Assembly (NCBI RefSeq): GCF_039548255.1
Contig: NZ_JBCLVH010000012.1
Span: forward strand, 76,354-116,353
Length of the DNA stretch: 40,000 bases
From: Lentibacillus songyuanensis
GTDB taxonomy: Bacteria > Bacillota > Bacilli > Bacillales > Amphibacillaceae
Direction of reading: 5' to 3'
Shown: piece after piece, positions 13,554 to 34,494 of the stretch
How positions within the stretch are numbered: the first letter of the stretch is position 1
How the letters are laid out: each line of letters begins with the position of its first letter
Position numbers and translations under genes: made by a program
The notes under the pieces: model-generated
Databases searched by the model: none
What the model was told of the DNA's origin: nothing
The model's input: only the letters and a program-made list of their open reading frames with translations

Positions 13554-13555
13554 GC

Positions 13556-16500: not shown

Positions 16501-18274
16501 GACTGGTAAGTGGGACAATGTTGTCGAGTGGGGTAAAGGGGTAATGAGCGGCATTGGCGGATGGGTTTCAGGTCTAATTGATGACGTGAAAGATTCATTC
16601 GGAAAAGGGCGCGAAAAAGGTAAGAATGCAGCTAACCCTAAAACCGCAAGTGATCACATTACCCGAAACACATCAGTAAGGTCAAAGAAATATGCATCTG
16701 GTGGTATAATCGACAGACCTCATATGGGTCTTGTTGGTGAAGCGGGGCCAGAAGCAATTATTCCATTGTCTGCAAACAGGCGCAGTCGTGCATTAGATTT
16801 GTATAACCAAACAGGAAAGATGCTGGGCGTTCGTCCTTATGCAAATGGTGGGATTGCCGGCGGTTCGGTAACTACACCGAAACAATCTACTGCACAGGCG
16901 TCATTGAATGTTGACTCTATATCAGTAAAAGGTACAGACCAAGAGGCTGAAAAATACGGAGAGGCATTTTCAACATCTGTCGCAAGCGGAATAAATGAAA
17001 AGGTTGTTCCTATTGACAACTGGCGTAAAGCCAATATCGACAACCCAATGCAAAATGTTGTTAGAGATGCCGCAGGGTTTGGTTCCAATACCGTGAGGTC
17101 ATTTTCTGGTGCGCAGAATGAAACGCCTACGCACACACGCGAGCATTTACAGAACCAAGTAAAACGTCCATTCGAAGTAATTAAAGGCGGAGCATCTGAA
17201 TGGGGTTCCGGAACTATTTCCAGATTCCGTTCAGGTCAGAACGAAACAGAAACCGGCACAAGGCCATATCTTGTTTCAAACGTTCATACGCCATTTAACG
17301 ACACACGAGCCAAAGCATCAGGTTGGGGCTCTGGAACAATGTCAGAGTTTATTTCTGGAATGAATTCTAAGTCCAATGGTGTGGAAAGTGCTGCAAAAAC
17401 ACTGGCCAAGTTGGTTGATAAAACGTTCCGAGAAGAACTAGGGATTGCATCCCCTTCTAAAGTCATGATGAAAAATGGTATGTGGACGTCCATGGGTATT
17501 GTAAAAGGTTTGAATTCTGTTGACATTAAGGCCTTTACCGAGAAGCGCATTAACGACATGATGTCGGCGTTTAGTGGTATGGGGTCTGGTAGTGGAAATG
17601 TTAAGAAGTGGCTAATGGCGGCTATGATGGCTACTGGCGCACCGGCTGAATGGTTGGCGCCACTAACTACTATCGCTATGAAAGAGAGTGGCGGTAGAAC
17701 AGGGCCATCTACTATTAACAAATGGGATTCCAATTGGGCACGTGGAACGCCGTCCATGGGTCTTATGCAGACGATTATGCCGACATTCCAAGCAAATAAA
17801 GTGTCTGGCATGAACGATATTATGAATCCTATCCATAACGCAGCTGCAGCAATAAATTACATCAAGAGTCGTTATGGTACGCCGTTCAACACACCGGGTA
17901 TTCGCTCGATGGCAGCCGGTGGCCCATATAAGGGTTACTGGAAAGGTACAGATGGGCCATTAAGAAGTGCCGAAACAGCATGGGTAGGTGAACGTGGCCC
18001 AGAATTAGTTCATCTTCCAAGAGGTTCGGAAGTATTTTCGAACAGAGAAAGCAAGAAAATATCATCCGGTCAATTATCGGCCGTTACTGGTTCCGGAACA
18101 ATAAGTGCATCTAAAGGAAGTAACAAAGGTGACGTTATTGTTCAATTTAATGGCGATAACCACTTCCAAAGTGAAGAGGATATGGATAAATTCACAGATA
18201 AAGTTAAAAAGGCTATTGAAAAGGTATTGGATGATGAATATGACGAGGGAGGAGAGTGGGTAGCCTATGAGTAA
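13556..18274 (+). CDS. Tail tape measure protein with a C-terminal lytic transglycosylase (SLT) domain
   Basis: 1572 aa after the chaperone pair. Gly-rich hydrophobic segment (about 15517-15665). Trp-rich repeats. SLT-like motifs AMKESGG...GLMQTIMPTF...AAAAINYIKSRYG (about 17675-17880). Confidence 0.9.
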   Translation: MAKLTARFDLEDRISKKLKTISGNAKALEQSRDKLNKPMVLKVKDQATKSLTKVHKFVLKDIAKTHTMYVALKDKATKPLNKLNSFMKRKMPRTHDIIVKAQDKTKSVLEKIRRYAGRHLSKPYMLMVAARDRAMPTLHKIANYAKRALSKGYNFSVRAIDIATKTVSRIASFARTAIPRYRDFTIRAWDRATKIVGTVRRALFSIPTMITVTLGVIGAGKLKDATLGAAMDFEGYQIATEHWLDGNKKKADELVEWMRDFTNKTPFDSPDLFPALARGIGVADGDVGQAKRLLNIATDMAALTPNRTVEDAMDALADANMGEFQTLKGFNVKMTQDDFESWEGFQSDMEDMFSGGAERFSQTSRGLFNKIGGYITASFREAGEGMLESMKPRLDKISTWIDNNQDKWMEWRDTVQKMGEQGAEWVLSKLEGAFFYIRDNYLENDEFKKLDFEGKVKFIMEDLGKWWNDKGRPIMAKVSKDVGAAIFEGIKWGIKEGFKGVGSMWMEAFKDPSVEGFAGAGIATAIAGSILSLVLSPLFKGIRGIFKTGKWFWDQGKKVAGLFGKRKPPKVPPVVPPGGGKTPKGSNKPKGKPTYTQPWFNKGDKVKTPKPNDFKNVSKISKIFKPLSKIAKRIPVIGPALGALSLLGTDKKDMAGAVGGMGGGILGGAAGGAAAGAAFGGVGAIPGAIIGGIAGAFGGEALGDWLSDNWSAIKTKASETGQWISDTFVGIKDSIAETIFSGEWWGEKWDGVKNWTSEKLSDTAEWWNNIKQTASETFFSADWWLEQAGFIYGYLEETIFSGEWWSDKWEIVKEWTEGTIFDGEWWSDKWGSVMEWTSEKWDSAVEIWQSVKTAFAETVFSADWWAGKWESVKGWTQEKWDSAVSVWNSVVDKISETIFSGDWWLEKWEGVKGWTADKWDSAVSIWNSVTDKISETIFSGEWWKGKWESVKDWTSDKWDTAKSIWSDVKTSISETLFSKDWWTGKWDNVVEWGKGVMSGIGGWVSGLIDDVKDSFGKGREKGKNAANPKTASDHITRNTSVRSKKYASGGIIDRPHMGLVGEAGPEAIIPLSANRRSRALDLYNQTGKMLGVRPYANGGIAGGSVTTPKQSTAQASLNVDSISVKGTDQEAEKYGEAFSTSVASGINEKVVPIDNWRKANIDNPMQNVVRDAAGFGSNTVRSFSGAQNETPTHTREHLQNQVKRPFEVIKGGASEWGSGTISRFRSGQNETETGTRPYLVSNVHTPFNDTRAKASGWGSGTMSEFISGMNSKSNGVESAAKTLAKLVDKTFREELGIASPSKVMMKNGMWTSMGIVKGLNSVDIKAFTEKRINDMMSAFSGMGSGSGNVKKWLMAAMMATGAPAEWLAPLTTIAMKESGGRTGPSTINKWDSNWARGTPSMGLMQTIMPTFQANKVSGMNDIMNPIHNAAAAINYIKSRYGTPFNTPGIRSMAAGGPYKGYWKGTDGPLRSAETAWVGERGPELVHLPRGSEVFSNRESKKISSGQLSAVTGSGTISASKGSNKGDVIVQFNGDNHFQSEEDMDKFTDKVKKAIEKVLDDEYDEGGEWVAYE
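15750..16535 (+). repeat. About eight degenerate in-frame tandem repeats (about 29-aa units) in the tape measure, consensus SETIFSGEWWxxKWExVKxWTxxKWDSAvxiW
   Basis: Read directly from the translation, e.g. ISETIFSGDWWLEKWEGVKGWTADKWDSAVSIWNSVTDK followed by ISETIFSGEWWKGKWESVKDWTSDKWDTAKSIWSDVKTS. Confidence 0.85.
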
Positions 18275-18947
18275 AAGTGTATATCAATTTTGGTTATCAA
18301 CAAATGATAATAAAGAGAGATTGAGGTTACCTGTTCTCCCCAGCTCTCTCGACATGAGTAATGGTTCAAAAAACGAATCTGTCGATATATCCAATTTAGG
18401 AGAAGTAACCATCTTGCAAGATCCGGCGGCAAAGATTGTTCAGTTTTCGTCATTTTTCCCATTGCACGACAGCACACTATCAGAGTATAGCAATCCACCA
18501 AAGCCGTGGGATGCTGTTAAAAAAATAGAAAAGTGGAAGAAAGCGAAGGTTCCATTACGATTTCTGGTTACTGGAACATCCATCAATCTGCCAGTGTCCA
18601 TAGATAACTTTAGTTATGGTGAGGAAGGCGGGGCTGTTGGAGACATTACGTATGATTTAACTTTAAAGGAATACCTTTTCGTAAGTATAAGGCAAATCAA
18701 AGTAAAGGTACCCAAGAAAAAGAAAACAAAGAAAAAATCAAGACCTGCAGTTAAGCCAAAAGCAAAGACTCACAAAGTTAAAAGTGGAGATACGTTATGG
18801 CATTTGGCCAAACGCTATTATGGTAACAGCTTAAAATGGCGAAAAATATGGAATGCTAATAAATCCATGATGATCAAACGAGACCGCAGGAATATTAAGC
18901 AGCCCGGTCACTGGATATTTCCCGGACAGGTGTTGAAGATACCATGA
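18267..18947 (+). CDS. LysM-domain tail protein (XkdP-like)
   Basis: C-terminal LysM: HKVKSGDTLWHLAKRYYGNSLKWRKIWNAN...PGQVLKIP. Confidence 0.85.
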   Translation: MSKSVYQFWLSTNDNKERLRLPVLPSSLDMSNGSKNESVDISNLGEVTILQDPAAKIVQFSSFFPLHDSTLSEYSNPPKPWDAVKKIEKWKKAKVPLRFLVTGTSINLPVSIDNFSYGEEGGAVGDITYDLTLKEYLFVSIRQIKVKVPKKKKTKKKSRPAVKPKAKTHKVKSGDTLWHLAKRYYGNSLKWRKIWNANKSMMIKRDRRNIKQPGHWIFPGQVLKIP

Positions 18948-19918
18948 TTGAGTTATATCTTGTTAAACCTGGACTAATGACTGAAATACCGACCAAATCT
19001 ATTAATTGGACAGGTCAACGTTTCAAATCAGCCAGAAAAATAACTGCAGAGGTTCTTTATACGGATAAAGGTGGACTGAAATTCACAAAGGTCAATGAAG
19101 GAGATACTGTTCTCTTTAAGTGGAAAGAAAAAGAATTATTCCGTGGTACTGTTTTTAATCGAAATAAGACTAAAAGCGGAACAATAACGATAATAGCCTA
19201 TGACATGCTTCACTATCTTTTGACCAATAAAGATATATATGTATTTTCGAAAAAGAGAGTCACTGACATGGTAGTGCGAATTTGTAAGGATTTCCAAATC
19301 CCTCGAGGAACTATCGCAAACACTGGTGTTCGATTAAATGAAATATACACCAATGAAACAACGCTTTATGACATCATTTTAAAAGGCATTGTTAATACCG
19401 AAAAGCAGTCCGGTAGAAGGTTTCAACTGTCGTCATCTAAAGGAAAACTTCACTTGAAGGAATGGAAGGAAATTGAAAAACAGTGGGTTCTGGAAACAGG
19501 CGTAAACATCACTGATTATAATTTCGCAACCAACTTAGACGACACTGCAACAAGGGTGAAGCTGGTATCTAGCGTAGATAAAAAGACAACAACAGCCGTT
19601 GTAAATAATGGTTCTGGCCAGAAAAAATACGGTGTTTTACAACATTTTGAGCGAGTCAATGAGGAATTGACTCAAAACCAAGCGAATAGCAGGGCTAAAA
19701 AGCTACTGAAACAGAAAAAAGGAATACAAAAGAATTTGGAAGTTGATGCGCTCGGAATTGACGAGGTTGTTAGTGGTATGCCTGTATATGTAATTGAAAA
19801 AGATTTGGGTATAAAGGGTACCTATTATGTTGATTCTGACACTCATTTTTTCATGGGAGATTACCATGACATGAAACTTAAGTTGCTAGAAAAAAATACT
19901 ATGGCGGAGGTGGATTAA
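18944..19918 (+). CDS. Baseplate hub / late control D-like protein (XkdQ-like)
   Basis: 324 aa; synteny after the LysM protein; overlapping start. Confidence 0.7.
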   Translation: MIELYLVKPGLMTEIPTKSINWTGQRFKSARKITAEVLYTDKGGLKFTKVNEGDTVLFKWKEKELFRGTVFNRNKTKSGTITIIAYDMLHYLLTNKDIYVFSKKRVTDMVVRICKDFQIPRGTIANTGVRLNEIYTNETTLYDIILKGIVNTEKQSGRRFQLSSSKGKLHLKEWKEIEKQWVLETGVNITDYNFATNLDDTATRVKLVSSVDKKTTTAVVNNGSGQKKYGVLQHFERVNEELTQNQANSRAKKLLKQKKGIQKNLEVDALGIDEVVSGMPVYVIEKDLGIKGTYYVDSDTHFFMGDYHDMKLKLLEKNTMAEVD

Positions 19919-20307
19919 TGAGTATTGCCCAAACAATCAAAAAGATGGCCAATGATGCAGTTAATGCTAACAACCCTTTGCAATTTGTGGAAGGTGTGGT
20001 TCACAGTCCACCTCCAAACATTCAACTAAGGCTGAAAAGCAGCTCAAAATTAATAATTCCTAGTGAATTTATTATTGTATCGGAGCATTTGACGAGGCAT
20101 ACCCGGACTGCGAACATAACTAGTTCTAATATCAGCAGTTCAATGGCGAGCGCGGGCGATCCCTCGCACACGCATGGTATAAACTCATTGACGCTCCGAA
20201 GTGCAAAAATAGAATTTACTGACGAACTAAAAAAAGGCGATAAAGTGATGGTTGCTGCCGTTCAAGGTGGACAATCATTTTTTATTATCGACAGATTTAA
20301 GGGGTGA
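19918..20307 (+). CDS. Baseplate spike-like protein (XkdR-like, DUF2577 position)
   Basis: 129 aa; synteny. Confidence 0.6.
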   Translation: MSIAQTIKKMANDAVNANNPLQFVEGVVHSPPPNIQLRLKSSSKLIIPSEFIIVSEHLTRHTRTANITSSNISSSMASAGDPSHTHGINSLTLRSAKIEFTDELKKGDKVMVAAVQGGQSFFIIDRFKG

Positions 20308-20314
20308 TTAAGTA

Positions 20315-20728
20315 ATGGCTTTATCACCAGAAGTTGATGTTGAGTTACCTGATGAAGATGTGGAAATAGAAACACTAAGAACATATAAAATTGATTACGA
20401 AACCATGACTATCACGAAAGAAATAATCGAAGGTATGGAAGCGATTAGGCAATTCATCTACATGGTTTTACGTACACAACGTTATGAGCATTTTATTTAT
20501 TCTACAGATTACGGTAGTGAAATAGATGCCCTGTTATCTGATAGTGAGGTTACGCAGGAGTTCAAAATAATGGAACTGCCACGCTTAATAACAGAGGCAT
20601 TAATCTACGATGAACGAATAGATGATGTTACCGATTTTGACATTAAACAAGAGTTTGATGCGTTCCGCGTTAGTTTTGCAGTCCATACCGTAGAGGGAAT
20701 TCTTGAAATAGAGGAGGTGCTAGAATAA
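20315..20728 (+). CDS. Baseplate wedge protein (XkdS-like, gp25/W-like)
   Basis: 137 aa; GMEAIRQFIYMVLRTQRYEHFIYSTDYGSE resembles the gp25-like family. Confidence 0.65.
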   Translation: MALSPEVDVELPDEDVEIETLRTYKIDYETMTITKEIIEGMEAIRQFIYMVLRTQRYEHFIYSTDYGSEIDALLSDSEVTQEFKIMELPRLITEALIYDERIDDVTDFDIKQEFDAFRVSFAVHTVEGILEIEEVLE

Positions 20729-21796
20729 ATGTTTGATAATATTTCGCCAGAATCACTATTAGAAGACATGTTAGATGAAGTTTCAGACGAATATGACAAG
20801 CGAGAGGGATCTGTAATATTTAACGCGCTTGCACCTGCGGCTGTAAAGCTATTTGAAACGTATATTTCTCTGGAACAGGTATTGGTTCTTGCTTTCCCTC
20901 AAACAAGTGAAGGGGAATACCTTGAAAAGATTACTGCAGGTGAAGGCGTGGAAAGAATTCTAGCAACTCCATCTACAAGACATTTCAAAGCGGAGGGAAC
21001 AGACGGAGAAATAGAACAAGGAACTCGTTTTTTCGTTGATGGCATCTATTTTGTTGCGCAAAAAACAGTTGAATTGCCAGTAACTTTCAAAGCTATATCA
21101 GAGGAAAAAGGTGCTGACACAGCTATTTATGACCCGGATACCATTTTACCTGTAGATGCCGATATTGACGGTCTTGAATCAATTTCCATGGTCAGTGATC
21201 ACGAAAATGACGTTGATGGCATTGATGATGAATCTGACAGTTCGCTACTCAAGAGATACTGGGAAAAGATTGAGAATTCACCGGGGCCAGGTAATGTTGC
21301 AGACTATATTAGGTGGTCGAAAGAGATTGCCGGGGTTGGGAATGTTCTTGTCGAGCCATTATGGAAAGGCGACGGCACTATAAGAGTTGTTATTCTTACT
21401 CCAGACGGAAAGCAAGCAACACCAGCACTAATAGAAGAGGTTCAAGAACTAATTGACCCGGATTCAAAGGGTGTAGGTGAAGGAAAAGCCCCTGTTGGCG
21501 CAAAAGTGACTGTTGCCACTGCGAAGGTCATGTATATTACTGCTACAATTCCAGATTTACAAATAGAACAGGGTTATACTGCTGATCAAGTTCAGTCGAA
21601 TATTGAAGATGCGTTGCACGAATACCTATCTGAAATAAATCCGGGTGGTGTAGTGCGAATTAAAGAGGCTGTCTCTGTTGTTATAAATGCTTCTGGTGTA
21701 CTTGATATCGGGGATATCCTGTTGAATGAAAAACGCGAAAACATCACGCTCGATATCACTGAACTTGCGAATCTTGGTGAGGTGACATACCCATGA
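20729..21796 (+). CDS. Baseplate J-like protein (XkdT-like)
   Basis: 355 aa; position and size fit the baseplate J family. Confidence 0.75.
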   Translation: MFDNISPESLLEDMLDEVSDEYDKREGSVIFNALAPAAVKLFETYISLEQVLVLAFPQTSEGEYLEKITAGEGVERILATPSTRHFKAEGTDGEIEQGTRFFVDGIYFVAQKTVELPVTFKAISEEKGADTAIYDPDTILPVDADIDGLESISMVSDHENDVDGIDDESDSSLLKRYWEKIENSPGPGNVADYIRWSKEIAGVGNVLVEPLWKGDGTIRVVILTPDGKQATPALIEEVQELIDPDSKGVGEGKAPVGAKVTVATAKVMYITATIPDLQIEQGYTADQVQSNIEDALHEYLSEINPGGVVRIKEAVSVVINASGVLDIGDILLNEKRENITLDITELANLGEVTYP

Positions 21797-22755
21797 AAGA
21801 ACAATTACTAGACTTGTTGCCGGAGCATTTCTCTATATTGAAAGAAATGCAAGAGATTGCACGTATAGAGGGGAAACAATTCAATGACTTACATGATTCG
21901 GTTGATGATCTGTTAGACCAGATGTACATCCATACAGCTACGTGGGGTCTTAGTTATTGGGAAAAGAGATACTTACTACCTGTTTTAAGTGAAGATACTG
22001 ACTACAAAAAGCGTAGGCGCCGTATTTTGACAAAGAAACGGAGCAACAAAGCAAACCTAATAGTCATATTAAGGGCTGTTGAACCTAATATAAGTCTTGC
22101 TTGGGGAGGATTGGTGCTGCCGTTCACCGTTGAAACGAATGTTGATTACTATGATTTTGGTGAATTAATAACCATATTAGAGACAGAAAAGCCATCTCAT
22201 TTAACGTATTCATTCAATTTGATTCCAAACGGATATACTGTCAAAGCTAATCGAAATGACCGGTATTCTGTTGCACTGAATCTTTTATCAGGTACAGCAA
22301 ATGCAGGGAGATTTCCGAGAGCGAATACCCGAGGTGAATCACTTCATACCATTTTACAAATACACAGCAAAAAAATAACCGGAGTTTCAGAACTACAACG
22401 GACTGCAGGTCTAGTCAGTGGAGGTAAAAATACACCAACGGCTTTTAGTAGTTCAGAAAGGTCATTTTTCAACATATCTATCAAGAACATAGGTGGAAAA
22501 TCAAGGTTTAATCCATCTGGTAAATATGAATCCGGACAAATATTTTATGATGCTGCGGGTGCTTCTCGTCAATCAACATTAAATCACAAGTCTGAATCCA
22601 TTACAGGTATTTCTGATTTGAAATCTGGCCAAGTCAATACCAAGTCGATTGGTGTTACTGTCATAGAAGAAACAATCATTAACTCTGTTGCTCCAACGGG
22701 AGTAGCCACCCCCATTAGATGTGGGACAATATCTGCTAGTAAGGAGGTGGCATAA
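21793..22755 (+). CDS. Tail protein I-like (XkdU-like) with an extended Ser/Thr/Gly-rich C-terminus
   Basis: The N-terminal roughly 170 aa resemble the DUF2313/P2 gpI family by synteny. The C-terminal roughly 150 aa are of unknown type. Confidence 0.6.
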   Translation: MKEQLLDLLPEHFSILKEMQEIARIEGKQFNDLHDSVDDLLDQMYIHTATWGLSYWEKRYLLPVLSEDTDYKKRRRRILTKKRSNKANLIVILRAVEPNISLAWGGLVLPFTVETNVDYYDFGELITILETEKPSHLTYSFNLIPNGYTVKANRNDRYSVALNLLSGTANAGRFPRANTRGESLHTILQIHSKKITGVSELQRTAGLVSGGKNTPTAFSSSERSFFNISIKNIGGKSRFNPSGKYESGQIFYDAAGASRQSTLNHKSESITGISDLKSGQVNTKSIGVTVIEETIINSVAPTGVATPIRCGTISASKEVA

Positions 22756-23046
22756 TTGCTAAAAATAATCAATGAAATAGTAGATTACATTGATGAACGG
22801 GCTGTCAAAGCAGACTACACCATCAACGGAAAAACGTATCCGGCCAAGATTAGGCGTTCTCTTGTTAAGGGAAATACGTTAAGAAAACATATATATTTAA
22901 CTCATAAAGACCCGACGGGAACCGTTACAAGAGCTAGGCTACTTGATGAAGATGGAGGGGTTGTCGCTGAACGAAATGACAGCCAAGAACATGAGGAAAA
23001 TAAGGGTTTGCTGTTAGAATTTAAAATCACTATTCAGGAGGTGTGA
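22756..23046 (+). CDS. Small hypothetical tail-fibre-region protein (96 aa, TTG start)
   Basis: Preceded by AAGGAGGTGG; abuts the previous stop. Confidence 0.5.
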   Translation: MLKIINEIVDYIDERAVKADYTINGKTYPAKIRRSLVKGNTLRKHIYLTHKDPTGTVTRARLLDEDGGVVAERNDSQEHEENKGLLLEFKITIQEV

Positions 23047-23048
23047 GT

Positions 23049-23561
23049 ATGTCAGTTAAAGATTACCGTGATCAATCATATGTACCTACAGAGTGGGAAG
23101 ACCAAGTCGTTGATAAAGATTCGGGAGATGTGTTAGTTGAAGGTACGCCAGTCGCAGAGACAACCTTAGGAAACTTAGAAACAGGCGTCATGCTATCCCA
23201 CTTCGATATTGGCATGCTACTGGCATTCGCGAATCAGTTGGGTACGTTAAACCAAAAAGAGTTAGACAAAATCAAAAATCAACGTATTCTACAAGGAAGC
23301 GGGACAATAACCAATACAATCAGTGATAACGGATATTTTAGGTCATCTGAGCCGTTTAAAACAATTTCCTTAGAAGGGTATTCACAAGTAAATGCGCCAA
23401 ATTATGATGTAATATTAACGCCTAAACCGACTGATGAATCGACTGGTTGTGTTGGAAAGTTGATTGCTTATGATAAAACAAGAAATGGCTTCAAGGTAAA
23501 AATGACGGGATCTGCAGATTCGGTCTCTTTTTTATGGACTTTAATCAACCCAAACGTATAA
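23049..23561 (+). CDS. Putative tail fibre / receptor-binding protein (XkdV position)
   Basis: ATG lies 8 nt after AGGAGG (the ORF track starts at GTG 23043). The N-terminus PTEWEDQVVD...GTPVAETTLGNLETG is the conserved N-terminal motif of Firmicutes phage fibre proteins. Confidence 0.55.
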   Translation: MSVKDYRDQSYVPTEWEDQVVDKDSGDVLVEGTPVAETTLGNLETGVMLSHFDIGMLLAFANQLGTLNQKELDKIKNQRILQGSGTITNTISDNGYFRSSEPFKTISLEGYSQVNAPNYDVILTPKPTDESTGCVGKLIAYDKTRNGFKVKMTGSADSVSFLWTLINPNV

Positions 23562-23576
23562 AAGGAGGAAAAATCA

Positions 23577-23969
23577 ATGATTATAACAAGCGCAAACAGT
23601 GGCCGCAAAGCAAATTATTCTTTGAGCGGTACTAAATTAACCATTGAAAATCAAATAACTATTGACTTGCAAGATAAAGAACGCACGGTTGAAAGGGTTA
23701 TAGATGTTTGTCTGGACAGACAGTTAGTAACCATTCGGGAGGGGTTGGGCGCATGGTATGTCGCTAATATCATCATCCCACCAAGACGCTATTCTTATCA
23801 ACCCAGCGGAGAAAAAGACGAAAATGACGAGAAAATCATGGAAGAGGTAGAACTTCCGGTGGATCCGTCATTGGTTGAATTAAGATTGTGGGGGCTTCCT
23901 ACGCAGTACTTTGAAAATGAAGATGAAGAAAGCGAAGACGAAACAAACGAATCGGAGGATGATGAATAA
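23577..23969 (+). CDS. Hypothetical protein with an acidic tail (XkdW position)
   Basis: 130 aa; AAGGAGG RBS; the stop overlaps the ATG of the DGR target gene. Confidence 0.5.
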   Translation: MIITSANSGRKANYSLSGTKLTIENQITIDLQDKERTVERVIDVCLDRQLVTIREGLGAWYVANIIIPPRRYSYQPSGEKDENDEKIMEEVELPVDPSLVELRLWGLPTQYFENEDEESEDETNESEDDE

Positions 23970-25027
23970 TGTCATTTATTTTATCGGTAAAAGACACATA
24001 TAGACAAGCTGTAGAAGCGGCAAGCGGTGGGAAAAACACTGTTATGTATGACGACAAAGGAAACCCATCAATTATGGTGTGCATCCCTCGTTTCAACTTG
24101 AGTGATGTGATTGACGGCGCGCCTAACACACCACACCCAGCATTTATTGTTGATGGTGTTGTTAAAAAGGAAATTTGGGTATCTAAGTTCCAGAATATTG
24201 TCCACGATGGCCGCGCATATTCGATTCCGGGTGTAGACCCTAAAGCATCTATTAATTTCAATGACTCAAAAGATGCATGTACCCGGAAGGGAGAAGGTTG
24301 GCACTTAATGACTAATGCTGAATGGGCTGCATTGGCTTTATGGTCTAAGAAAAATGGAACAATGCCACGCGGAAACAATGATTATGGAAAAGACCACTCT
24401 GCATCATATGAACGAGGAGTTGAAACCTATGAAACAGGGGGCAGAACAGGTCGTGTGGCAACTGGATCAGGGCCAGCAACTTGGAGTCATGATCATACGC
24501 CGTTCGGAGTGTTTGATTTAAACGGTAACGTCCGTGAGTGGGTAGACGGTTTACGCCTTATTGACGGTAAGATATACGTACATCAAGATAATGACTTTAA
24601 TACGCCGGATTCGTTGTCTAATTGGGTGGATACCGAGATATATGTAGATAACTCGGAAAAAGGCAATGACAGAAAAGAGTCCAATACTGTTAGCGGAAAA
24701 CCTATTTTGAACAGCAAAAGAGAGAATCCGATGTACACAGGTGGAGACGTTGATGATTATTACGGTTACAACTACACCGGCTTTGAAGACCTCGAAACAA
24801 AGAGCGGGGTTAGTACACCAGATTTACTAAAATATTTGGCTATTGCGCCTACCGAAGGAGACCATGGCGGTGACAGATTCTATGCACGTAACTATGGTGA
24901 GCGTTTCGCGCTCCGTGGAGGCCATTGGAGCCACGGTGCTAATGCTGGTGTGTTCTACCTGTACTTGCACAACCGTGCTTCGCGTTCGCTTACGCTTCTT
25001 GGCTTTCGCTCGTCGCTGGTTTTATGA
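23969..25027 (+). CDS. DGR variable (target) protein, C-type lectin / FGE-sulfatase-like fold; probable distal receptor-binding protein
   Basis: GWHLMTNAEWAALALW and FDLNGNVREWVDG motifs. C-terminus GGHWSHGANAGVFYLYLHNRASRSLTLLGFRSSLVL. The last 125 bp are repeated, with adenine-specific differences, at 25471-25595. Confidence 0.9.
   Translation: MSFILSVKDTYRQAVEAASGGKNTVMYDDKGNPSIMVCIPRFNLSDVIDGAPNTPHPAFIVDGVVKKEIWVSKFQNIVHDGRAYSIPGVDPKASINFNDSKDACTRKGEGWHLMTNAEWAALALWSKKNGTMPRGNNDYGKDHSASYERGVETYETGGRTGRVATGSGPATWSHDHTPFGVFDLNGNVREWVDGLRLIDGKIYVHQDNDFNTPDSLSNWVDTEIYVDNSEKGNDRKESNTVSGKPILNSKRENPMYTGGDVDDYYGYNYTGFEDLETKSGVSTPDLLKYLAIAPTEGDHGGDRFYARNYGERFALRGGHWSHGANAGVFYLYLHNRASRSLTLLGFRSSLVL
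24897..25021 (+). repeat. DGR variable repeat (VR)
   Basis: Aligns without gaps to 25471-25595 (offset 574). There are 14 mismatches, 13 of them opposite TR adenines. The final 25 nt (24997-25021) contain no A and are identical, which makes them IMH-like. Confidence 0.92.
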
Positions 25028-25057
25028 GTTCTGTAATCTGATAACTGATAATCTGTT

Positions 25058-25079
25058 AGGCTCTGCGATAGCGGAGCCT
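25058..25079 (+). promoter_or_regulatory. Hairpin with GATA (GNRA-type) tetraloop downstream of VR; candidate DGR target-recognition hairpin/cruciform and/or terminator
   Basis: aggctctgc GATA gcggagcct forms a 9-bp stem including one T-G pair, followed by ttttac. Confidence 0.6.
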
Positions 25080-25102
25080 TTTACTTTAAGGGGATAGAAA
25101 CA

Positions 25103-25444
25103 TTGAATAGGGAAGACTTGAAAATACTGCAGAGAGCAAACGATATGATCGAATATGGTTACAAGGCGTTGAGGCAGTACCCAAAATCAGAGCGACACAC
25201 TCTTGCGGCAGACACCAAGCAGTGTATGTACAATATTTTAAAATTGATCATACGTGCGAATAAGCGTTATTTCAAAAAGACGACCTTACAGGATTTGGAT
25301 ATAGAAATAGACACATTAAGACATTTTATAAGGTTAGGCCAATCATTGGGTTTTCTTCCGTTTCGTAAATATGAAATATGGTCAAAGCAAATCAACGAAA
25401 TTGGAAAAATGCTAGGTGGTTGGATAAAATCTAACCCGAAATAA
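25103..25444 (+). CDS. avd: Accessory variability determinant (Avd; four-helix-bundle protein)
   Basis: 113 aa, TTG start. YPKSERHTLAADTKQ...LDIEIDTLRHFIRLGQSLGFL...EIGKMLGGWIK matches the Avd / 23S-IVS-protein family pattern. Lies between the target gene and TR. Confidence 0.85.
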   Translation: MNREDLKILQRANDMIEYGYKALRQYPKSERHTLAADTKQCMYNILKLIIRANKRYFKKTTLQDLDIEIDTLRHFIRLGQSLGFLPFRKYEIWSKQINEIGKMLGGWIKSNPK

Positions 25445-25470
25445 GTGTCCTTAGGGAATTGGTCATTTTT

Positions 25471-25595
25471 GTGAGCGTTTCGCGAACCGTGGAGGCAATT
25501 GGAACAATGGTGCTAATGCTGGTGTGTTCTACCTGAACTTGAACAACCGTGCTTCGAATTCGAATACGAATCTTGGCTTTCGCTCGTCGCTGGTT
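25471..25595 (+). repeat. DGR template repeat (TR), non-coding
   Basis: Copy of the VR that keeps AAC/AAT at every diversified codon. Not part of any plausible + strand ORF. Confidence 0.92.
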
Positions 25596-25753
25596 CTCTC
25601 TGTCAGAAGTTACAAGCGTACTCGCTTGTATCCAGAATTGAAGAAAACGGACTGATTTCCTTGCCAATGGCGGCTAAAGATATAAATTGCCGGCAAATCA
25701 GTTAGTATATTGAATTGGAAAAGTGATACGGCCGGCCAACATAGAGAAAAAAG

Positions 25754-26842
25754 GTGAATAAAAATATGAAAAGGGTAGGTCAGTTATTTGAAAAAATAAT
25801 TGATTACGAAAATCTCTTTGAAGCATATTTAATGGCCAAAAAAGGGAAACGTTATAGAGGAGAGGTTTTAGATTTCAGCTATAATGCTGAGGAAGAATTA
25901 ATACAAATACAAAATGATTTAATATACGGAACTTATGAAGTTGGTCGATACCGTGAATTTTATGTGTACCATCCGAAAAAGAGATTAATTATGGCGTTAC
26001 CGTTTCGTGATAGAGTAGTTCAATGGGCGATTTATAAAGTGCTTTATCCAATTTATTTCAAAAGGTTTATAAAAGATTCTTATGCCTGTATAAACGGAAG
26101 AGGTTCACATAGTGCTGCAGCAAGAATCCAGTATTGGTTGCGGCAATTAGAAAGACAACCGGGTAAAACCTATTATCTGCAGATGGATATGTCGAAGTAT
26201 TTTTATAGAATCAACCACGACATTTTATTGTCGATAATTTCTAGAACAATAAAAGATAAAGACCTCATGGTTTTGTTGGCCAGAATTATAAAAAGTGAAC
26301 ATACAAAGTTTGGAATACCGCTAGGTGACCATTTCTATGAACAAGAAAGAGTTGATGGTGTTGGCATGCCAATCGGTAATCTAACAAGTCAACTGTTCGC
26401 CAATGTCTATCTTAATGAAATGGATCAGTATGCTAAACATGATATGAAGGTACGTCATTATATACGTTATATGGATGACATAGTTATTCTTCATAAGGAT
26501 AAGAATGAATTGAAAGAAATATTGATAGAATCAAATTTGTTTCTGCAACATGAATTACATCTTCAAATTAACAACAAGACAAGAATCGACAACACTAACC
26601 ACGGAGTGGATTTTGTCGGAAAAAGAATATGGCCAACCCACATGAAATTAAGAAAAGAAACTGTGAAAAACATGAAATCAAGGCTAAAGTACATACAAAA
26701 ACAATTTGCCTTTGGGGAGGTGAGTACAGATGAAGTGAGGTCTGTTTTATCGTCTTATCTTGGATTAATGAAGCACACAGATTCGCATAATCTGAGAAAG
26801 AAGATATTGAAAGAATTTGTATTAACAAGAGGCGCCGAATAG
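25754..26842 (+). CDS. DGR reverse transcriptase
   Basis: RT motifs YLQMDMSKYF, GMPIGNLTSQLFANVYL (the DGR-typical I/LGxxxSQ) and IRYMDDIVIL (YMDD). The start may be ATG at 25766 rather than GTG at 25754. Confidence 0.92.
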   Translation: MNKNMKRVGQLFEKIIDYENLFEAYLMAKKGKRYRGEVLDFSYNAEEELIQIQNDLIYGTYEVGRYREFYVYHPKKRLIMALPFRDRVVQWAIYKVLYPIYFKRFIKDSYACINGRGSHSAAARIQYWLRQLERQPGKTYYLQMDMSKYFYRINHDILLSIISRTIKDKDLMVLLARIIKSEHTKFGIPLGDHFYEQERVDGVGMPIGNLTSQLFANVYLNEMDQYAKHDMKVRHYIRYMDDIVILHKDKNELKEILIESNLFLQHELHLQINNKTRIDNTNHGVDFVGKRIWPTHMKLRKETVKNMKSRLKYIQKQFAFGEVSTDEVRSVLSSYLGLMKHTDSHNLRKKILKEFVLTRGAE

Positions 26843-26901: not shown

Positions 26902-27312
26902 ATGTTTAGACATTACAATGAAGCAAAGTTTTTAGCGAACATGTATATATTAACCATATCGCTATTTAATTTTATGACGGGCATATTTTTTATTACTGCG
27001 GATCCGCGAATATCGTCGCCAACATATACAAAAATGCAAGATTTGATGCCCCTGTCAGTCTACGGCCTGATAATGCTGACATCATCCATTTTGCTGTTTT
27101 CTTGTATTTTCCAGCAAGGGAAAATAAGATGTATTTTTATGATGATTGGCGGGTTTTTAGGTGCTATTAGCATTGGTTTATACGCCAGTGCAAGCTCTAT
27201 AGGAGCGGTCAATATAATGTTGCCTTCAAGATATAGTTTGATTAGTATATCATGTTTGCTCATATCGATCGCTGGAGGTTTTAGTTTATGGCGAATGAGG
27301 ATGAGTATGTAA
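26902..27312 (+). CDS. Integral membrane protein (about 4 TM segments), function unknown
   Basis: 136 aa. Hydrophobic stretches FLANMYILTISLFNFMTGIFFI, LSVYGLIMLTSSILLFSCIF, CIFMMIGGFLGAISIGLYA and LISISCLLISIAGGFSLW. RBS GAGGGAG. Confidence 0.65.
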   Translation: MFRHYNEAKFLANMYILTISLFNFMTGIFFITADPRISSPTYTKMQDLMPLSVYGLIMLTSSILLFSCIFQQGKIRCIFMMIGGFLGAISIGLYASASSIGAVNIMLPSRYSLISISCLLISIAGGFSLWRMRMSM

Positions 27313-27686
27313 CAAGACTGGAATTAATAAAAACACAAAACGATTTAAAAAACGATGTGACAGAGCGGATAGACAACGTACGCAAGAAAGTTGATACCTT
27401 GAACGATATAGTTCTACCGTTGGTGGAATCATCAAAACAAACAGCAAAAAACACAGATAGAATGGCCACTGTACTTGACGAGTTTACGAACGACCAAAGG
27501 AAGCGAAACGGCGACTTTTATGACCGGCTTCACGAGCATGATAGGGCTATAGATAATCTGGGTTTAAAAACGAAATATAGAACAGAGGACAAAAAGCAAA
27601 TGGCGAAAATTATAGTAGCCGGTATTGGCCTGGTTGCCGCTATAGTGAGTGGTATATTCGGGCTTGCGCCGTTGTTTTTTAACTAG
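27288..27686 (+). CDS. XhlA-like lysis-associated protein (coiled coil plus C-terminal TM anchor)
   Basis: 132 aa; C-terminal IIVAGIGLVAAIVSGIFGLAPLFF; lies directly upstream of the holin, as in PBSX xhlA. Confidence 0.55.
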   Translation: MANEDEYVTRLELIKTQNDLKNDVTERIDNVRKKVDTLNDIVLPLVESSKQTAKNTDRMATVLDEFTNDQRKRNGDFYDRLHEHDRAIDNLGLKTKYRTEDKKQMAKIIVAGIGLVAAIVSGIFGLAPLFFN

Positions 27687-27696
27687 GAGGGGTAAA

Positions 27697-28038
27697 GTGG
27701 AATCACTAACAAGTAGTTTAATAGAAGCAGTTTTTACAGTCGTCGGAATACTTTTAGCCGCGGCTGTTTCTTATTTTACGCCAAAAATAAAGCGGTGGCT
27801 TGATAAGGCTGTAGATAAAGACAACCTCGGGATCATTGAGTCTGTGGTAGATATGGCCGTGGAACTAATGGAAAATGAATTCAGCGGGCAGAGTGGCCAA
27901 GAAAAGTTCAATCAAGCATCTGAGTATGTTGCTTTAATGGCGCACCGTTATGGAATTGAAGTGTCGGATGAATTTATACGTGGAGCTGTACAAAAAGGCT
28001 GGCGTCGAATGGATGAAAAACAAAAGAGCAAAGAGTAA
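27697..28038 (+). CDS. Holin (LL-H-like: one N-terminal TM, charged C-terminal domain)
   Basis: GTG start after AGGAGGGG. N-terminal LIEAVFTVVGILLAAAVSYF followed by a hydrophilic domain. Confidence 0.6.
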   Translation: MESLTSSLIEAVFTVVGILLAAAVSYFTPKIKRWLDKAVDKDNLGIIESVVDMAVELMENEFSGQSGQEKFNQASEYVALMAHRYGIEVSDEFIRGAVQKGWRRMDEKQKSKE

Positions 28039-28062
28039 TTCATAAATGGATTGCTCTTTTTT
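28023..28062 (+). terminator. Possible terminator overlapping the end of the holin gene
   Basis: aaagagcaa (28023-28031) pairs with ttgctcttt (28051-28059); 19-nt loop; T run follows. Confidence 0.35.
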
Positions 28063-28094
28063 GTTTCTTAAAAATATGAAAGGAATGATCAACT

Positions 28095-28307
28095 ATGGAA
28101 ACTGGACAAATCGTCAGAGTTATAGACAAAGATAAGGTTCGTAATGACAAGCACTTGGAAGATAGCGCGCTGAAAATTATTGAGAAAAGCAATTTCGAGG
28201 GAGATATCACAAAAATTGAGGACGGCATCCATTTCGTTGGTTTTAGCAATGATCTCGGCTGGGTTACTCAGGGATACAAAGCAAAAGAAATTGAGGAGGT
28301 AAAATAA
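28095..28307 (+). CDS. Small hypothetical protein (70 aa) between holin and endolysin
   Basis: Its stop is 1 nt from the amidase ATG (TAATATG); no recognisable motif. Confidence 0.5.
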   Translation: METGQIVRVIDKDKVRNDKHLEDSALKIIEKSNFEGDITKIEDGIHFVGFSNDLGWVTQGYKAKEIEEVK

Positions 28308-28308
28308 T

Positions 28309-29526
28309 ATGGCTACTAAAAACGGTATTGAATATGTCGTAAAAAGATTGCCAAACAACAAACTGACTCTTAAAGCTACCAACCCAATGAAAGCAAAAGG
28401 ATATACTTTGCATAACACTTATAATGATGCGGCTGCATTGAGTGAAATAAGCTATATGCAGACAAATAACAATCAAGTGTCTTATCATTTTGCGGTGGAT
28501 AACTTAAGAATCGTGCGAGGTTTACCGCTAGATCGCAACGGTTGGCATGCTGGTGATGGAGGTAATGGTTACGGAAACAGAAACACTTTTGGAGTAGAAA
28601 TATGTTATTCGAAAAGTGGCGGAGAGCGTTATGACAAGGCTGAAACAAATGCAATCATGTTTGTGGCCAATGGATTAGTTGAAAATGGATGGGATATGTC
28701 AGACGTTCACAAACATCAGGATTGGAGTGGGAAGAACTGTCCTCATAGAATCTTGGCTCGTTCTCGCGGATGGCAAGGTATTTTAAAAGCGATAGAGAAA
28801 GAGTATAATAGATTAAAAGGTGGCAAGCCAAACAAGCCTAGCACTCCTTCCAAACCGTCAACTCCATCTAATGGCGGCGCTTATAAAGGAAATAGTATTG
28901 TAGACTATTTAAACGGCAAAGGTATTAATTCGAGTCCTGCCAATCGTAAGAAGTTGGCCAAGAAGTATGGCGTTAAGAATTACACTACTTCCGCAAAGAA
29001 GAATCTTGAATTATTGAACGCAATGAGAGACGAAAAAAAACCATCTAGCGGAGGCGGCAGCAAGCCGACAGGTAAATCAATCAGTAAAATGGCTGATGAG
29101 GTTATTGCTGGAAAGCATGGTTCAGGACACGAAAACAGACGCAAGTCTCTCGGAATAAGCAAATCCGAATACGAAAAAGTCCGTGCGGAGGTCAATAGAC
29201 GTTCCGGAGTGAAGTCCAAACCTAAACCTAGCGGAAAGTCTGTTTCTCAAATGGCTAAAGAAGTAATTGACGGAAAGCATGGTAATGGACATGCAGCAAG
29301 ACGTAAGTCGTTAGGAATTAGCCAGGCTCAATATAATAAGGTTAAAAATGAAGTCAACAAGCGATTGACTGGCAAATCGTCAGGCGGAGGAAAATCTATT
29401 GCGACTATGGCCAAGGAAGTTATTGCTGGAAAACACGGAAATGGTCACGCGGCCAGACAAAAGTCTCTTGGCATAAGTAAAGCGCAATATGAAAAAGTAA
29501 GAAAAGAAGTAAATAAGAAACTGTAA
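28309..29526 (+). CDS. Endolysin: N-acetylmuramoyl-L-alanine amidase (Amidase_2/PGRP) with three C-terminal CW_7-type cell-wall-binding repeats
   Basis: GWHAGDGGNGYGNRNTFGVEICYS...HKHQDWSGKNCPHRIL, followed by 3x MAxEVIxGKHGNGHxxRRKSLGISxxxYxKVxxEVNxx. Confidence 0.9.
   Translation: MATKNGIEYVVKRLPNNKLTLKATNPMKAKGYTLHNTYNDAAALSEISYMQTNNNQVSYHFAVDNLRIVRGLPLDRNGWHAGDGGNGYGNRNTFGVEICYSKSGGERYDKAETNAIMFVANGLVENGWDMSDVHKHQDWSGKNCPHRILARSRGWQGILKAIEKEYNRLKGGKPNKPSTPSKPSTPSNGGAYKGNSIVDYLNGKGINSSPANRKKLAKKYGVKNYTTSAKKNLELLNAMRDEKKPSSGGGSKPTGKSISKMADEVIAGKHGSGHENRRKSLGISKSEYEKVRAEVNRRSGVKSKPKPSGKSVSQMAKEVIDGKHGNGHAARRKSLGISQAQYNKVKNEVNKRLTGKSSGGGKSIATMAKEVIAGKHGNGHAARQKSLGISKAQYEKVRKEVNKKL
29071..29523 (+). 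repeat. Three in-frame tandem repeats (162/156-bp period) encoding CW_7-like modules
   Basis: Units start at 29071, 29233 and 29389, all in frame with the 28309 start. Confidence 0.85.
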
Positions 29527-29759
29527 ATATATCCACCTGTTTTTCGAGGGATATTACCGGTACAATAAGGGAAGGTTTTATCCCCAAAGGCACATGAAAC
29601 CCTGTGGATAAGTACACGTAATATACAGGTAATACACAAACCCTCCCCAAAGTGTTGATATATCAAGTACCCTCAGTTCTCAAAACGTTAATAGGATTGT
29701 TGATATACCAATGTTTGCAAAGGTTTTTTGGTGCAAGTTGGTGCAAATTAACGTTAATC

Positions 29760-30800
29760 TTATAAAGCATTTAACAGATTTAAAGCATCGGCATCTTGCT
29801 GGTGCTTTTTTTCTGGCATTAATTCTAGATAATAATTTTGTGTGGTTTGGATATTTATATGTCCTAATCGTTTTGATACATAAGCAATATCTATGTCTTG
29901 AGCAAATAAAAATGATGCGTGCGTATCTCTCAAACCATGAAACGTTGTTTTTTTAATGTCTAGTTTCTCTAGTAGTTCAGTCAACTGTTCAGATTGTTTA
30001 AATCCCCCAAAACTAAAAATATAACCATTTTCTTTAACAGGAATCCTACGAATAAGCTCATACACTTCTTTGTTTATAGAAACATCACGTTTTGCATTTT
30101 GTGTCTTCAATGAAGTATCGTCAGAGGTAGGACTGATGGAATGTCTAACTTCTATTCCGTATTCATAAAGACTCTCTGGTCGTATTGCTAGTAGTTCTCC
30201 ACGTCGCATACCTGTTTCTAATGCTAGTAATACAAGTACGTTGAATTCATCTTCTGTATGCTGTAAAACGTAATTGCGAAGCTTTTTAAAATCTGTAATA
30301 GATAAAGCTTTGTTTCGTTTAGGTGGGTTTTCACCACGTGTTTTCACTAAACGAGCAAAATCGTTTGTAATATAACCACGAGCGTATGCATCACGTAAAG
30401 ATGTTTTAATTTTAAGAAGCACTTCATGTGTTGTTTTTCGTGAATGTGTTTTCGCATATTCGTCAATTTTCTTCTGAACAACAATATCATTTAAATCTTT
30501 CAATTGGTTATCCTGAAATAAATTTCTAATAATGCCAGAAGTACGAACATAATTTTGAAATGTTGTTTCTTTAACATCATTAACCTTTACAAGGTAAATC
30601 CAATTCTCGAAGAAATCTGCAAATGTTGTTGTTCTGTGAGCGAGTTCTTTTCCTTCCCCTTTCGCTAATTCCATTTCTAAAGCCCAAAGATTTGCTTCTT
30701 TCTTTGTTGGAAAGGTTTGCGAAATCCTTTTATGTTGACCGTGTTTGTATAAAGAAACCTGTGCTCGATATGACTTTCCTCTTTTTACTATACTAGCCAT
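29760..30800 (-). CDS. int: Tyrosine site-specific integrase
   Basis: 346 aa; C-terminal catalytic pattern FHGLRDTHASF...LGHINIQTTQNYYLE (HxxR ... H ... Y); N-terminal SAM-like arm domain. Confidence 0.9.
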   Translation of the reverse strand: MASIVKRGKSYRAQVSLYKHGQHKRISQTFPTKKEANLWALEMELAKGEGKELAHRTTTFADFFENWIYLVKVNDVKETTFQNYVRTSGIIRNLFQDNQLKDLNDIVVQKKIDEYAKTHSRKTTHEVLLKIKTSLRDAYARGYITNDFARLVKTRGENPPKRNKALSITDFKKLRNYVLQHTEDEFNVLVLLALETGMRRGELLAIRPESLYEYGIEVRHSISPTSDDTSLKTQNAKRDVSINKEVYELIRRIPVKENGYIFSFGGFKQSEQLTELLEKLDIKKTTFHGLRDTHASFLFAQDIDIAYVSKRLGHINIQTTQNYYLELMPEKKHQQDADALNLLNAL

Positions 30801-30827
30801 ACTATCATCCCTCTCATAAAAATAGCT

Positions 30828-30880
30828 GATAGATGCTAGTTGAATACAATTATATTGTATTTCTAAACTAGCATCTTATC
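30828..30880 (-). promoter_or_regulatory. Long imperfect hairpin between xis and int
   Basis: gatagatgctagtt...aactagcatc(t)tatc forms an outer stem of 14 bp with one bulge. Inner stem aatacaat/attgtatt (8 bp, loop tat). On the - strand it is followed by cagctattttta. Confidence 0.45.
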
Positions 30881-30894
30881 AACTGTCGGCATTT

Positions 30895-31092: not shown

Positions 31093-31109
31093 ATGGCATC
31101 TTCTCCTTT

Positions 31110-31307: not shown

Positions 31308-31314
31308 GTAAATA

Positions 31315-32472: not shown

Positions 32473-32495
32473 GTTCTATTCACTCCTTTTCGTTC

Positions 32496-32688: not shown

Positions 32689-32691
32689 GAG

Positions 32692-34011: not shown

Positions 34012-34028
34012 ATCCTAATATTGTGATT

Positions 34029-34461: not shown

Positions 34462-34494
34462 GTGAAGAATTCATCCTTTCCCTATGGATATTTT

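Follow-up and report, generated by a model that had tools for sequence, protein, structure and literature searches.

Genes at the locus

We analyzed a 40,000-nucleotide stretch of the Lentibacillus songyuanensis genome (RefSeq assembly GCF_039548255.1, contig NZ_JBCLVH010000012.1, positions 76,354 to 116,353; hereafter, the window), which contains the late genes of a prophage with a PBSX-lineage contractile tail and, at the tail operon's distal end, a diversity-generating retroelement (DGR). A preliminary description of this DNA had proposed that the DGR diversifies the distal fibre protein of a PBSX/skin-type particle. Nearly all long open reading frames (ORFs) from 261 to 29526 lie on the + strand, as a single phage late operon. 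The distal tail genes and the parts of the DGR are listed below, where BalMu-1 and FP_Lagaffe (Lagaffe) are phages with comparable loci and TaqVP is a DGR variable protein of a Thermus aquaticus prophage.

21793–22755, + strand: Mu Gp48-like baseplate triplex protein, 320 amino acids (Pfam Phage_Mu_Gp48)
22756–23046, + strand: 96-amino-acid protein, phrog_7177, homologue of BalMu-1 gp47
23043–23561 (NCBI start, 23049), + strand: 172-amino-acid protein, homologue of Lagaffe gp24 and BalMu-1 gp48
23577–23969, + strand: 130-amino-acid protein, phrog_8734, homologue of Lagaffe gp25 and BalMu-1 gp49
23969–25027, + strand: DGR target, 352 amino acids, TaqVP-type protein with the FGE-subtype C-type lectin (CLec) fold (Pfam FGE-sulfatase segment)
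24897–25021, + strand: variable repeat (VR), 125 nucleotides, target codons 310–351 of 352
25058–25079, + strand: GC-rich hairpin with a 9-bp stem and a GATA loop, 31 nucleotides past the target stop and followed by a T-run
25103–25444, + strand: Avd (Pfam bAvd, E 2e-33; NCBIfam DivGenRetAVD, 129.1 bits against an equivalog cut-off of 80)
25471–25595, + strand: template repeat (TR), 125 nucleotides, with 26 adenines and 11 AAY codons in the VR frame
25596–25735, + strand: RT-14 RNA (RF02921), between the TR and the reverse transcriptase (Rfam, 60.2 bits; gathering score, 48.1)
25766–26842, + strand: DGR reverse transcriptase (RT; Pfam RVT_1, E 1.3e-21)

The conservation of these features was assessed in a set of 161 related loci, comprising 81 genome loci and 80 viral loci fetched from IMG/VR, and phage relatives were sought in a collection of 50,697 phage records.

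An intact diversity-generating retroelement

All components of the retroelement are intact: the RT, Avd, the TR and VR, the RT-14 RNA, an invariant 3' segment, and the hairpin. The VR and TR differ at 14 positions, 13 of which are TR adenines, so that half of the adenines (13/26) are changed. With adenines at 26 of the 125 TR positions, the binomial probability of at least 13 of 14 mismatches falling on adenine is P = 1.5e-8. The non-adenine positions are identical at 98 of 99 while the flanks diverge immediately, and this near-identity lends indirect support, at the level of sequence, to ongoing mutagenic homing. The lone mismatch outside the adenines is a T to C at 24934, in a third codon position. 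Nine of the 11 AAY codons of the TR are altered in the VR, and across 120 target homologues these nine sites had a mean entropy of 3.29 bits, versus 1.10 bits elsewhere. When the whole window was scanned with the TR, ignoring adenines, no VR was found besides this one.

The last 25 nucleotides of the VR (24997–25021) are invariant and probably correspond to an initiation of mutagenic homing (IMH)-like segment. As regards the hairpin beyond the target stop, a perfect hairpin (stem of ≥ 6 bp, 4-nucleotide loop) was present 20–30 nucleotides past the target stop in 50 of the 81 related genome loci; the loops were mostly GATA, with the variants GACA, GGTA, and GAAA. Because of this conservation, we interpret it as the DGR target-site hairpin and not merely as a terminator, and it may double as a transcription terminator.

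The RT carries IGNLTSQ (residue 203) and YMDD (residue 235), which fit the DGR-clade motifs [LIV]GxxxSQ and YxDD, and it probably starts from the ATG at 25766, 12 nucleotides inside a GTG-started ORF at 25754. Its best phage matches were the DGR RTs of BalMu-1 (63% identity), Saumur, and Lagaffe (48%). The RT-14 RNA occupies the matching position between TR and RT in BalMu-1 and in the related loci L005, L007, and L013. RT-14 coordinates were recorded at 37143–37286 in L001, 11580–11720 in L005, 11557–11696 in L007, and 11511–11643 in L013. In the literature searched for RT-14 together with DGRs, we found no paper naming RT-14 in connection with them. A promoter scan gave sites that were not in excess of those in shuffled sequence, and it is therefore uninformative on a separate promoter for Avd, TR, and RT. 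The RT motifs, the almost wholly adenine-confined TR/VR differences, the presence of Avd, and a VR at the 3' end of its gene with a hairpin behind it place the element among the DGRs, and in this respect the preliminary description, which had called the cassette a DGR, was correct.

The target is a TaqVP-type protein

A profile of the target, built from 14 homologues, was compared with the Protein Data Bank (PDB) and matched TaqVP (5VF4) at E 2.4e-92 over residues 2–352, i.e., over its full length. The AlphaFold2 model of the target was of moderate confidence (pLDDT 65), and Foldseek with this model returned 5VF4 only (E 8e-28, TM 0.72–0.75, 41% identity). TaqVP is a single globular, monomeric domain of the CLec fold and is the T. 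aquaticus prophage DGR's variable protein (PMC6328139). Besides homology along their whole length (approximately 41% identity), the two proteins have in common the FGE-subtype CLec fold and AAY codons in a VR at the C-terminal end; they differ in that TaqVP comes from a host of another phylum. Based on the full-length homology and the modelled fold, the target belongs to the TaqVP-type CLec-fold variable proteins of DGRs.

[quoted passage not shown] No Mtd chain was recovered by the target sequence profile (E ≤ 1) or among the Foldseek hits, and the target does not have the N-terminal trimerisation domains that precede the CLec domain in Mtd in the strict sense. Since it is a full-length homologue of TaqVP, we regard the target as a probable globular binding protein of variable sequence at the tip of the tail and not as a fibre. 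The proposal that it is the distal fibre protein was thus not borne out, and the structure prediction that had been suggested as a check led to 5VF4 for the target itself and, for the neighbouring 172-amino-acid protein, to a helix and beta-sandwich with sub-threshold matches.

The target has neither a signal peptide nor a lipobox, and the lack of a signal peptide argues against a role at the cell surface. Its start overlaps the stop of the 130-amino-acid gene in the sequence TAATG at 23967–23971, as reported earlier. The target and the 172-amino-acid protein are each 100% identical to an NCBI protein of Lentibacillus sp. N15. At E ≤ 1e-10, 3989 homologues were collected, many of them from Bacillaceae. 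Relatives are encoded in 230 species-representative genomes and in no fewer than 448 contigs of IMG/VR, and the family includes proteins annotated as phage antireceptors. The NCBI name of the target, "SUMF1/EgtB/PvdO family nonheme iron enzyme," is misleading and is used across many Bacillaceae genomes.

Proteins that accompany the target

The triplex protein is composed of two parts. Its N-terminal part of approximately 140 residues is Mu Gp48/P2 gpI/TRI-1-like and, in solved baseplates, matches diffocin TRI-1 (CD1372, 8V3W) as well as an "XkdT-related protein" (9G8S); the C-terminal part of approximately 180 residues is lineage-specific. The full-length 320-residue protein is conserved only in the DGR-bearing loci L005 and L013.

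Three small proteins lie between the triplex protein and the target. The 96-amino-acid protein, which travels with the cassette, is present in 18 of the 81 genome loci and 42 of the 80 viral loci. The 172-amino-acid protein is found next to the target in 46/81 genome loci and 73/80 viral loci, and the 130-amino-acid protein occurs in 50/81 and 71/80, respectively. Sequence and profile searches of the PDB with the 172- and 130-amino-acid proteins gave nothing meaningful. The AlphaFold2 model of the 172-amino-acid protein (pLDDT 78) has a small N-terminal beta region, a helix at residues 41–76, and a C-terminal lectin-like beta-sandwich, and Foldseek gave sub-threshold likeness (E 0.02–0.3) to H-type lectins, C-terminal domains of tailspikes, and R-pyocin fibre tips. 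From this model, we infer a putative short trimeric fibre or adaptor, and the fibre-like element of the cassette is more probably this protein than the target. A homologue of its C-terminal domain was also found in P0215 (258 amino acids, on a 9.1-kb Logan contig), where a coiled-coil-like linker joins it to the baseplate-anchor domain BppU_N (PF10651); this fusion hints that the beta-sandwich domain is a transferable fibre head. The NCBI name of the 172-amino-acid tail-module protein, "signal transduction protein," is likewise misleading and widespread in Bacillaceae genomes. The 130-amino-acid protein ends in a strongly acidic C-terminal tail (ENEDEESEDETNESEDDE), right before the overlapping target start; it may serve as a chaperone, an adaptor, or a decoy.

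A PBSX-lineage tail and the point at which its specificity module begins

The remaining genes of the late operon are as follows.

261–1550, + strand: ParB_N and DNA-methylase fusion, preceding the small terminase
1870–8792, + strand: head and packaging genes (terminase, portal, Mu-F-like protein, scaffold/protease, capsid)
6696–7826, + strand: XkdF-type protease (scaffold; Pfam)
8810–9172, + strand: YqbF-motif protein (Pfam)
11088–21796, + strand: PBSX-lineage contractile tail module, from sheath to Baseplate_J (Pfam; tblastn collinear with PBP180 at 32–75% identity)
11088–12416, + strand: sheath, in the XkdK position (Pfam)
12420–12866, + strand: tube, DUF2001 (XkdM; Pfam)
12925–13368, + strand: XkdN chaperone (Pfam)
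13556–18274, + strand: tape measure, 1572 amino acids (Pfam)
18267–18947, + strand: LysM protein, XkdP-like (Pfam)
18944–19918, + strand: YQBQ (XkdQ; Pfam)
19918–20307, + strand: DUF2577 (Pfam)
20315–20728, + strand: sheath initiator (Pfam)
20729–21796, + strand: Baseplate_J, XkdT-like (Pfam)
26902–27686, + strand: 136-amino-acid "tail protein" (phrog_2968) and 132-amino-acid protein, between the RT and the holin (PHROG)
27649–28038, + strand: holin (homology searches)
Between holin and amidase, + strand: 70-amino-acid ORF, within the downstream gene block 26902–29526
28309–29526, + strand: amidase with CW_7 repeats, closing the late operon (Pfam)

Connector proteins with DUF3199 and DUF3599 are also encoded, between the YqbF-motif protein and the sheath. 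Among the phage records, the closest sheath was that of Bacillus phage PBP180 (53.6% identity), a 28.2-kb Bacillus pumilus phage of PBSX layout that is labelled in its record as a defective phage. By tblastn, 18 window proteins are collinear with PBP180 at 27–75% identity (75% for the tube and 63% for XkdN); the series starts with the large terminase and ends with the N-terminal part of the triplex protein. On sequence comparison, the collinear XkdE–XkdU-like head-tail genes assign the tail module to the PBSX lineage. The PBSX gene order described earlier was therefore supported by both the Pfam hits from sheath to Baseplate_J and the collinearity with PBP180, and the flanking genes did not prove unrelated to PBSX-type tails on homology search. 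The synteny comparison and the search for related DGR RTs that had been proposed as a check gave collinearity with PBP180 and RT relatives in BalMu-1, Lagaffe, and catalogued loci.

Within the 320-residue triplex protein, homology to PBP180 covers only residues 3–141. Downstream of this point, no PBP180 counterpart was found for the C-terminal 180 residues of the triplex protein, the 96-, 172-, and 130-amino-acid proteins, the target, the DGR, or the two genes ahead of the holin. By this comparison, the changeover from the conserved tail to the swapped specificity module takes place within the triplex gene. PBSX, PBP180, and Bp15.1PLP resemble the window element in having a specificity region ahead of the lysis genes, and PBP180 also in its collinear head-tail proteins; PBP180 differs in that it has no DGR, has other fibre genes, and has a different small terminase and capsid. 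PBSX-layout particles of B. pumilus have bacteriocin activity and a variable region beside the lysis genes (PMC8347963), with which the earlier argument that the DGR occupies a specificity slot agrees. This slot was located correctly, before the lysis genes and where PBP180 homology ends; the genes said to be in the XkdV/XkdW position, by contrast, are not XkdV/XkdW homologues, and no distal genes of the XkdV/XkdW/XkdX/XepA type were found, as 22756–23969 gave no Pfam match at all and PBP180 gave no match past residue 141. Similarly, of the lysis cassette described as XhlA/holin/amidase, the holin and amidase were found, and "XhlA" has as its sole basis a weak PHROG "hemolysin" match (E 3.6e-4) of the 132-amino-acid protein at 27288–27686.

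The two genes at 26902–27686 had a counterpart in none of the 161 related loci, which indicates that the region after the DGR is itself variable.

Known loci of the same organization

The arrangement had been put forward as the best candidate in the window for something new. Comparison with known phages did not bear this out, because the same order is already present in BalMu-1, FP_Lagaffe, VHML, Oceanobacillus sp. CF4.6, and the IMG/VR contig L098. The closest of these is L098 (IMGVR_UViG_3300028594_000126, 39.9 kb), in which all genes from tube to RT are ordered alike at 54–83% identity and in which a tyrosine integrase, an ImmA-type peptidase, a helix-turn-helix (HTH) repressor, a Cro-like protein, and an antirepressor lie directly past the lysis genes. 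The Oceanobacillus sp. CF4.6 prophage (L005) is next, with the order conserved from the tube or tape measure through the RT at 50–77% identity. Both L098 and L005 are known as catalogue entries, and both differ from the window in the genes that separate the RT from the lysis cassette.

In BalMu-1 (NC_030945), an XkdK/M/N-type tail, tape measure, XkdP, Q, S, and T are followed by a Gp48-like gene, and the distal order is three small ORFs, an FGE/CLec target, Avd, TR and RT-14 RNA, RT, holin, and endolysin. Identity to the window is 47% for the target, 70% for Avd, and 63% for the RT. In contrast, BalMu-1 is a Mu-like transposable phage with tail proteins only 25–47% identical (sheath, 27%), and the window tail is far nearer to that of PBP180. 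In the myovirus FP_Lagaffe, baseplate J and a P2 I-like gene precede three small ORFs, which are followed by an FGE-type target, Avd, the RT, and lysis genes; the phage differs in its host (gut Clostridia), an IS30-type transposase used for integration, a second SUMF1-like gene, and a target identity of 40%. Lagaffe forms virions, its VR reads are hypervariable, and its target has been described as Mtd-like (Cornuault et al. 2018, PMC5883640). The P2-like Vibrio phage VHML (L083) has gpJ, gpI, a short fibre, a target of 40% identity, and an RT.

The BPP-1 Mtd system is the DGR prototype. In BPP-1, the function of the DGR is tropism switching, and according to the literature BPP-1 is a short-tailed phage, not a myovirus. 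The window element resembles it in its target, Avd, TR, RT, adenine mutagenesis, IMH, downstream hairpin, and CLec variable face, and differs in that Mtd has the extra beta-prism and beta-sandwich trimerisation domains.

A Baseplate_J (XkdT-like) match and an RT occurred together in 31 of the 81 genome loci and 27 of the 80 viral loci (at least 58/161), and the fuller set of XkdP, XkdQ, XkdT, Avd, and RT in 22/81 and 20/80, respectively. In an IMG/VR prophage contig (L091, 4097–12157), the cassette follows a baseplate of P2 type (gpX, D, V, U, W, J, and I); the synteny matches of this contig are identical in position to those of the Geobacillus jurassicus locus L004. Because the cassette also occurs behind P2-type baseplates (L091 and VHML), we consider it portable between contractile tails of the PBSX, P2, and Mu types. 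To extend the sequence to the left of the window, exact matches were sought for the proteins of the 219–1550 ORF (methylase), the small and large terminases, and the target, which gave no record, and for a 35-mer in IMG/VR, which gave none either. A megablast search of the head region (1–9200) against phages was likewise negative.

According to surveys, the targets of viral DGRs are mostly tail proteins, and such elements are common in phages of Firmicutes (PMC8144416, PMC5758913). In the literature searched for DGR with PBSX and for DGR with tailocin, no paper described that combination. The DGR/PBSX framing is thus unpublished in the searched literature, and the biology itself is not new. 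As DGR-driven diversification of tail receptor binding is established in temperate phages of Firmicutes (PMC5883640, PMC8144416, PMC5758913), the impact on the field is small. The recurring cassette, consisting of the 96-, 172-, and 130-amino-acid proteins, a TaqVP-type target, Avd, TR and RT-14 RNA, and RT behind baseplate J/gpI, suggests a portable plug-in receptor-binding module, of which hundreds of copies are hidden in Bacillaceae genomes under the two misleading protein names given above. The preliminary description was right on the architecture and likely function of the locus, imprecise on the nature of the target, and wrong on the novelty.

Proposed function and alternative interpretations

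Based on these results, we interpret the element as a functional-looking DGR at the distal tail operon of a Lentibacillus prophage with a PBSX-lineage contractile tail, which diversifies a tail-tip binding protein; we assign this interpretation a probability of roughly 0.8. In the proposed mechanism, an RNA comprising the TR and the RT-14 spacer would be transcribed, and the RT with Avd would make complementary DNA (cDNA) of the TR transcript, misincorporating opposite template adenines. The cDNA would then replace the VR at the 3' end of 23969–25027, guided by the invariant 3' segment and by the GATA-loop hairpin downstream, so that the ligand-binding face of the globular TaqVP-type protein could be randomised at as many as 11 AAY codons. 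The target would be produced along with the tail and is probably held at the periphery of the baseplate via the C-terminal domain of the triplex protein and the 96-, 172-, and 130-amino-acid proteins. Progeny with varied receptor-binding tips might in this way track changes in the host surface. The presence of the target in the virion, its mode of attachment, the current activity of the DGR, and the nature of the element as a temperate phage and not a defective particle are predicted from the comparisons described here.

Several observations weigh against this interpretation. The T-to-C change at 24934 points either to some drift after homing last took place or to an error of the RT. The TaqVP crystal is monomeric, so threefold or sixfold attachment to the baseplate needs partners, whose roles are guessed, and the fold matches of the 172-amino-acid protein are below significance (E ≥ 0.02). 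The left end of the prophage lies beyond the window, and the temperate-phage call rests on its relative L098; moreover, the nearest characterised relative of the tail, PBP180, is a defective phage. Finally, the virion location of the target and the activity of the DGR in this strain are predictions.

The foremost alternative is a domesticated, defective particle similar to PBSX, either a bacteriocin or a packager of host DNA, in which the DGR diversifies the killing or adsorption spectrum. PBSX-type elements are about 28 kb long, are under Xre and sigma-like control, have no integrase or replication genes, package host DNA in small heads, and kill without propagation. Consistent with such a particle, PBP180, defective by its record label, provides the nearest sheath, tube, and terminase in the phage collection, and no integrase, repressor, or replication genes of this element are visible within the window. 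It has also been reported that PBSX-like B. pumilus particles kill related strains and carry a variable region near the lysis genes (PMC8347963). On the other hand, the small terminase, Mu-F-like head protein, major capsid protein, and YqbF-like protein have no PBP180 counterpart; the Mu-F-like, YqbF-like, and methylase proteins are additional to the PBP180 set, and the capsid protein resembles those of 33–36 kb Lactococcus phages. Upstream of the small terminase gene lies the ParB-methylase and not a sigma-like factor, and the methylase homologue in another prophage (L165) follows DnaD-/DnaC-like replication genes. The nearest catalogued relative, the 39.9-kb L098, bears a standard lysogeny module, and the visible part, which runs from the methylase to the amidase, measures 29.5 kb and by itself exceeds the full length of either PBSX or PBP180. 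We therefore consider a domesticated particle unlikely, and the comparison of relatives speaks for a temperate myovirus rather than for a killer particle of PBSX type. A headless R-type tailocin of the pyocin or diffocin type is excluded because capsid and packaging genes are present (1870–8792). Accordingly, the tailocin-like reading raised earlier is disfavoured, both by these head genes and by the organization of L098 as a temperate phage. There is only a slim chance that this element, or one or other related Bacillaceae element with a PBP180-like tail, is a host-domesticated defective particle of PBSX type whose killing or DNA-delivery spectrum is continuously re-randomised by a DGR. No description of such a self-diversifying phage-like bacteriocin was found in the literature searched; if true, a defective PBSX-like killer of this type would be a natural scaffold for retargetable bacteriocins.

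It is similarly improbable that the DGR is a recently inactivated fossil, in which the VR/TR pattern records past homing and no diversification takes place now. The single non-adenine mismatch within the repeat would fit such a history, but the element retains an intact RT, Avd, TR, RT-14 RNA, invariant 3' segment, and hairpin, the 98 of 99 identical non-adenine positions stand between flanks that diverge at once, and the related DGR of Lagaffe is active (PMC5883640).

Least probable is that the target is no tail component but a cargo or lysogenic-conversion protein at the end of the operon, for example one that binds at the cell surface or inside the cell. In favour of this, databases annotate it as a SUMF1/EgtB/PvdO-type enzyme, and many bacterial DGR targets are non-phage proteins of the cell surface (PMC5758913). 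Against it, signal peptide and lipobox are both missing, the target start is coupled to the gene upstream, and in tails of the PBSX, P2, and Mu types alike the target is constantly found with baseplate J/gpI and one set of small ORFs; in addition, another PHROG "tail protein" is encoded downstream of the RT, and family members are annotated as phage antireceptors.

Regions flanking the late genes

At the upstream end of the late operon, repeated ACTTTGAAC / ACATTGAAC motifs occur at approximately 70–120, and a terminator-like hairpin with a T-run at 205–232 is followed by a strong ribosome-binding site and the ATG at 261. The region 60–232 may be a late-promoter or regulator-binding region. 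The gene that starts at this ATG and heads the packaging genes (261–1550) fuses a ParB N-terminal domain to an N6/N4 DNA methylase; the methylase homologue in the prophage L165, which is 60% identical, follows DnaD-like and DnaC/IstB-like replication genes.

On the downstream side, the prophage lysis genes are adjoined by a separate integrative island of lower GC content (0.31–0.36) at 29760–40000, with the following genes.

29760–30800, – strand: tyrosine integrase
30895–31092, – strand: HTH_17 Xis-like gene
32692–34011, – strand: FtsK/SpoIIIE ATPase
35680–36123, + strand: RadC
From approximately 36268 past the window end: Type ISP restriction-modification enzyme, at least 1244 amino acids

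The integrase at 29760–30800 was considered as the prophage's own and rejected, as it heads the lower-GC island and has 25% identity to the L098 integrase. The 233-bp gap between the amidase and this integrase (29527–29759) may contain a shared att site, and hence the prophage and the island may have integrated in tandem.

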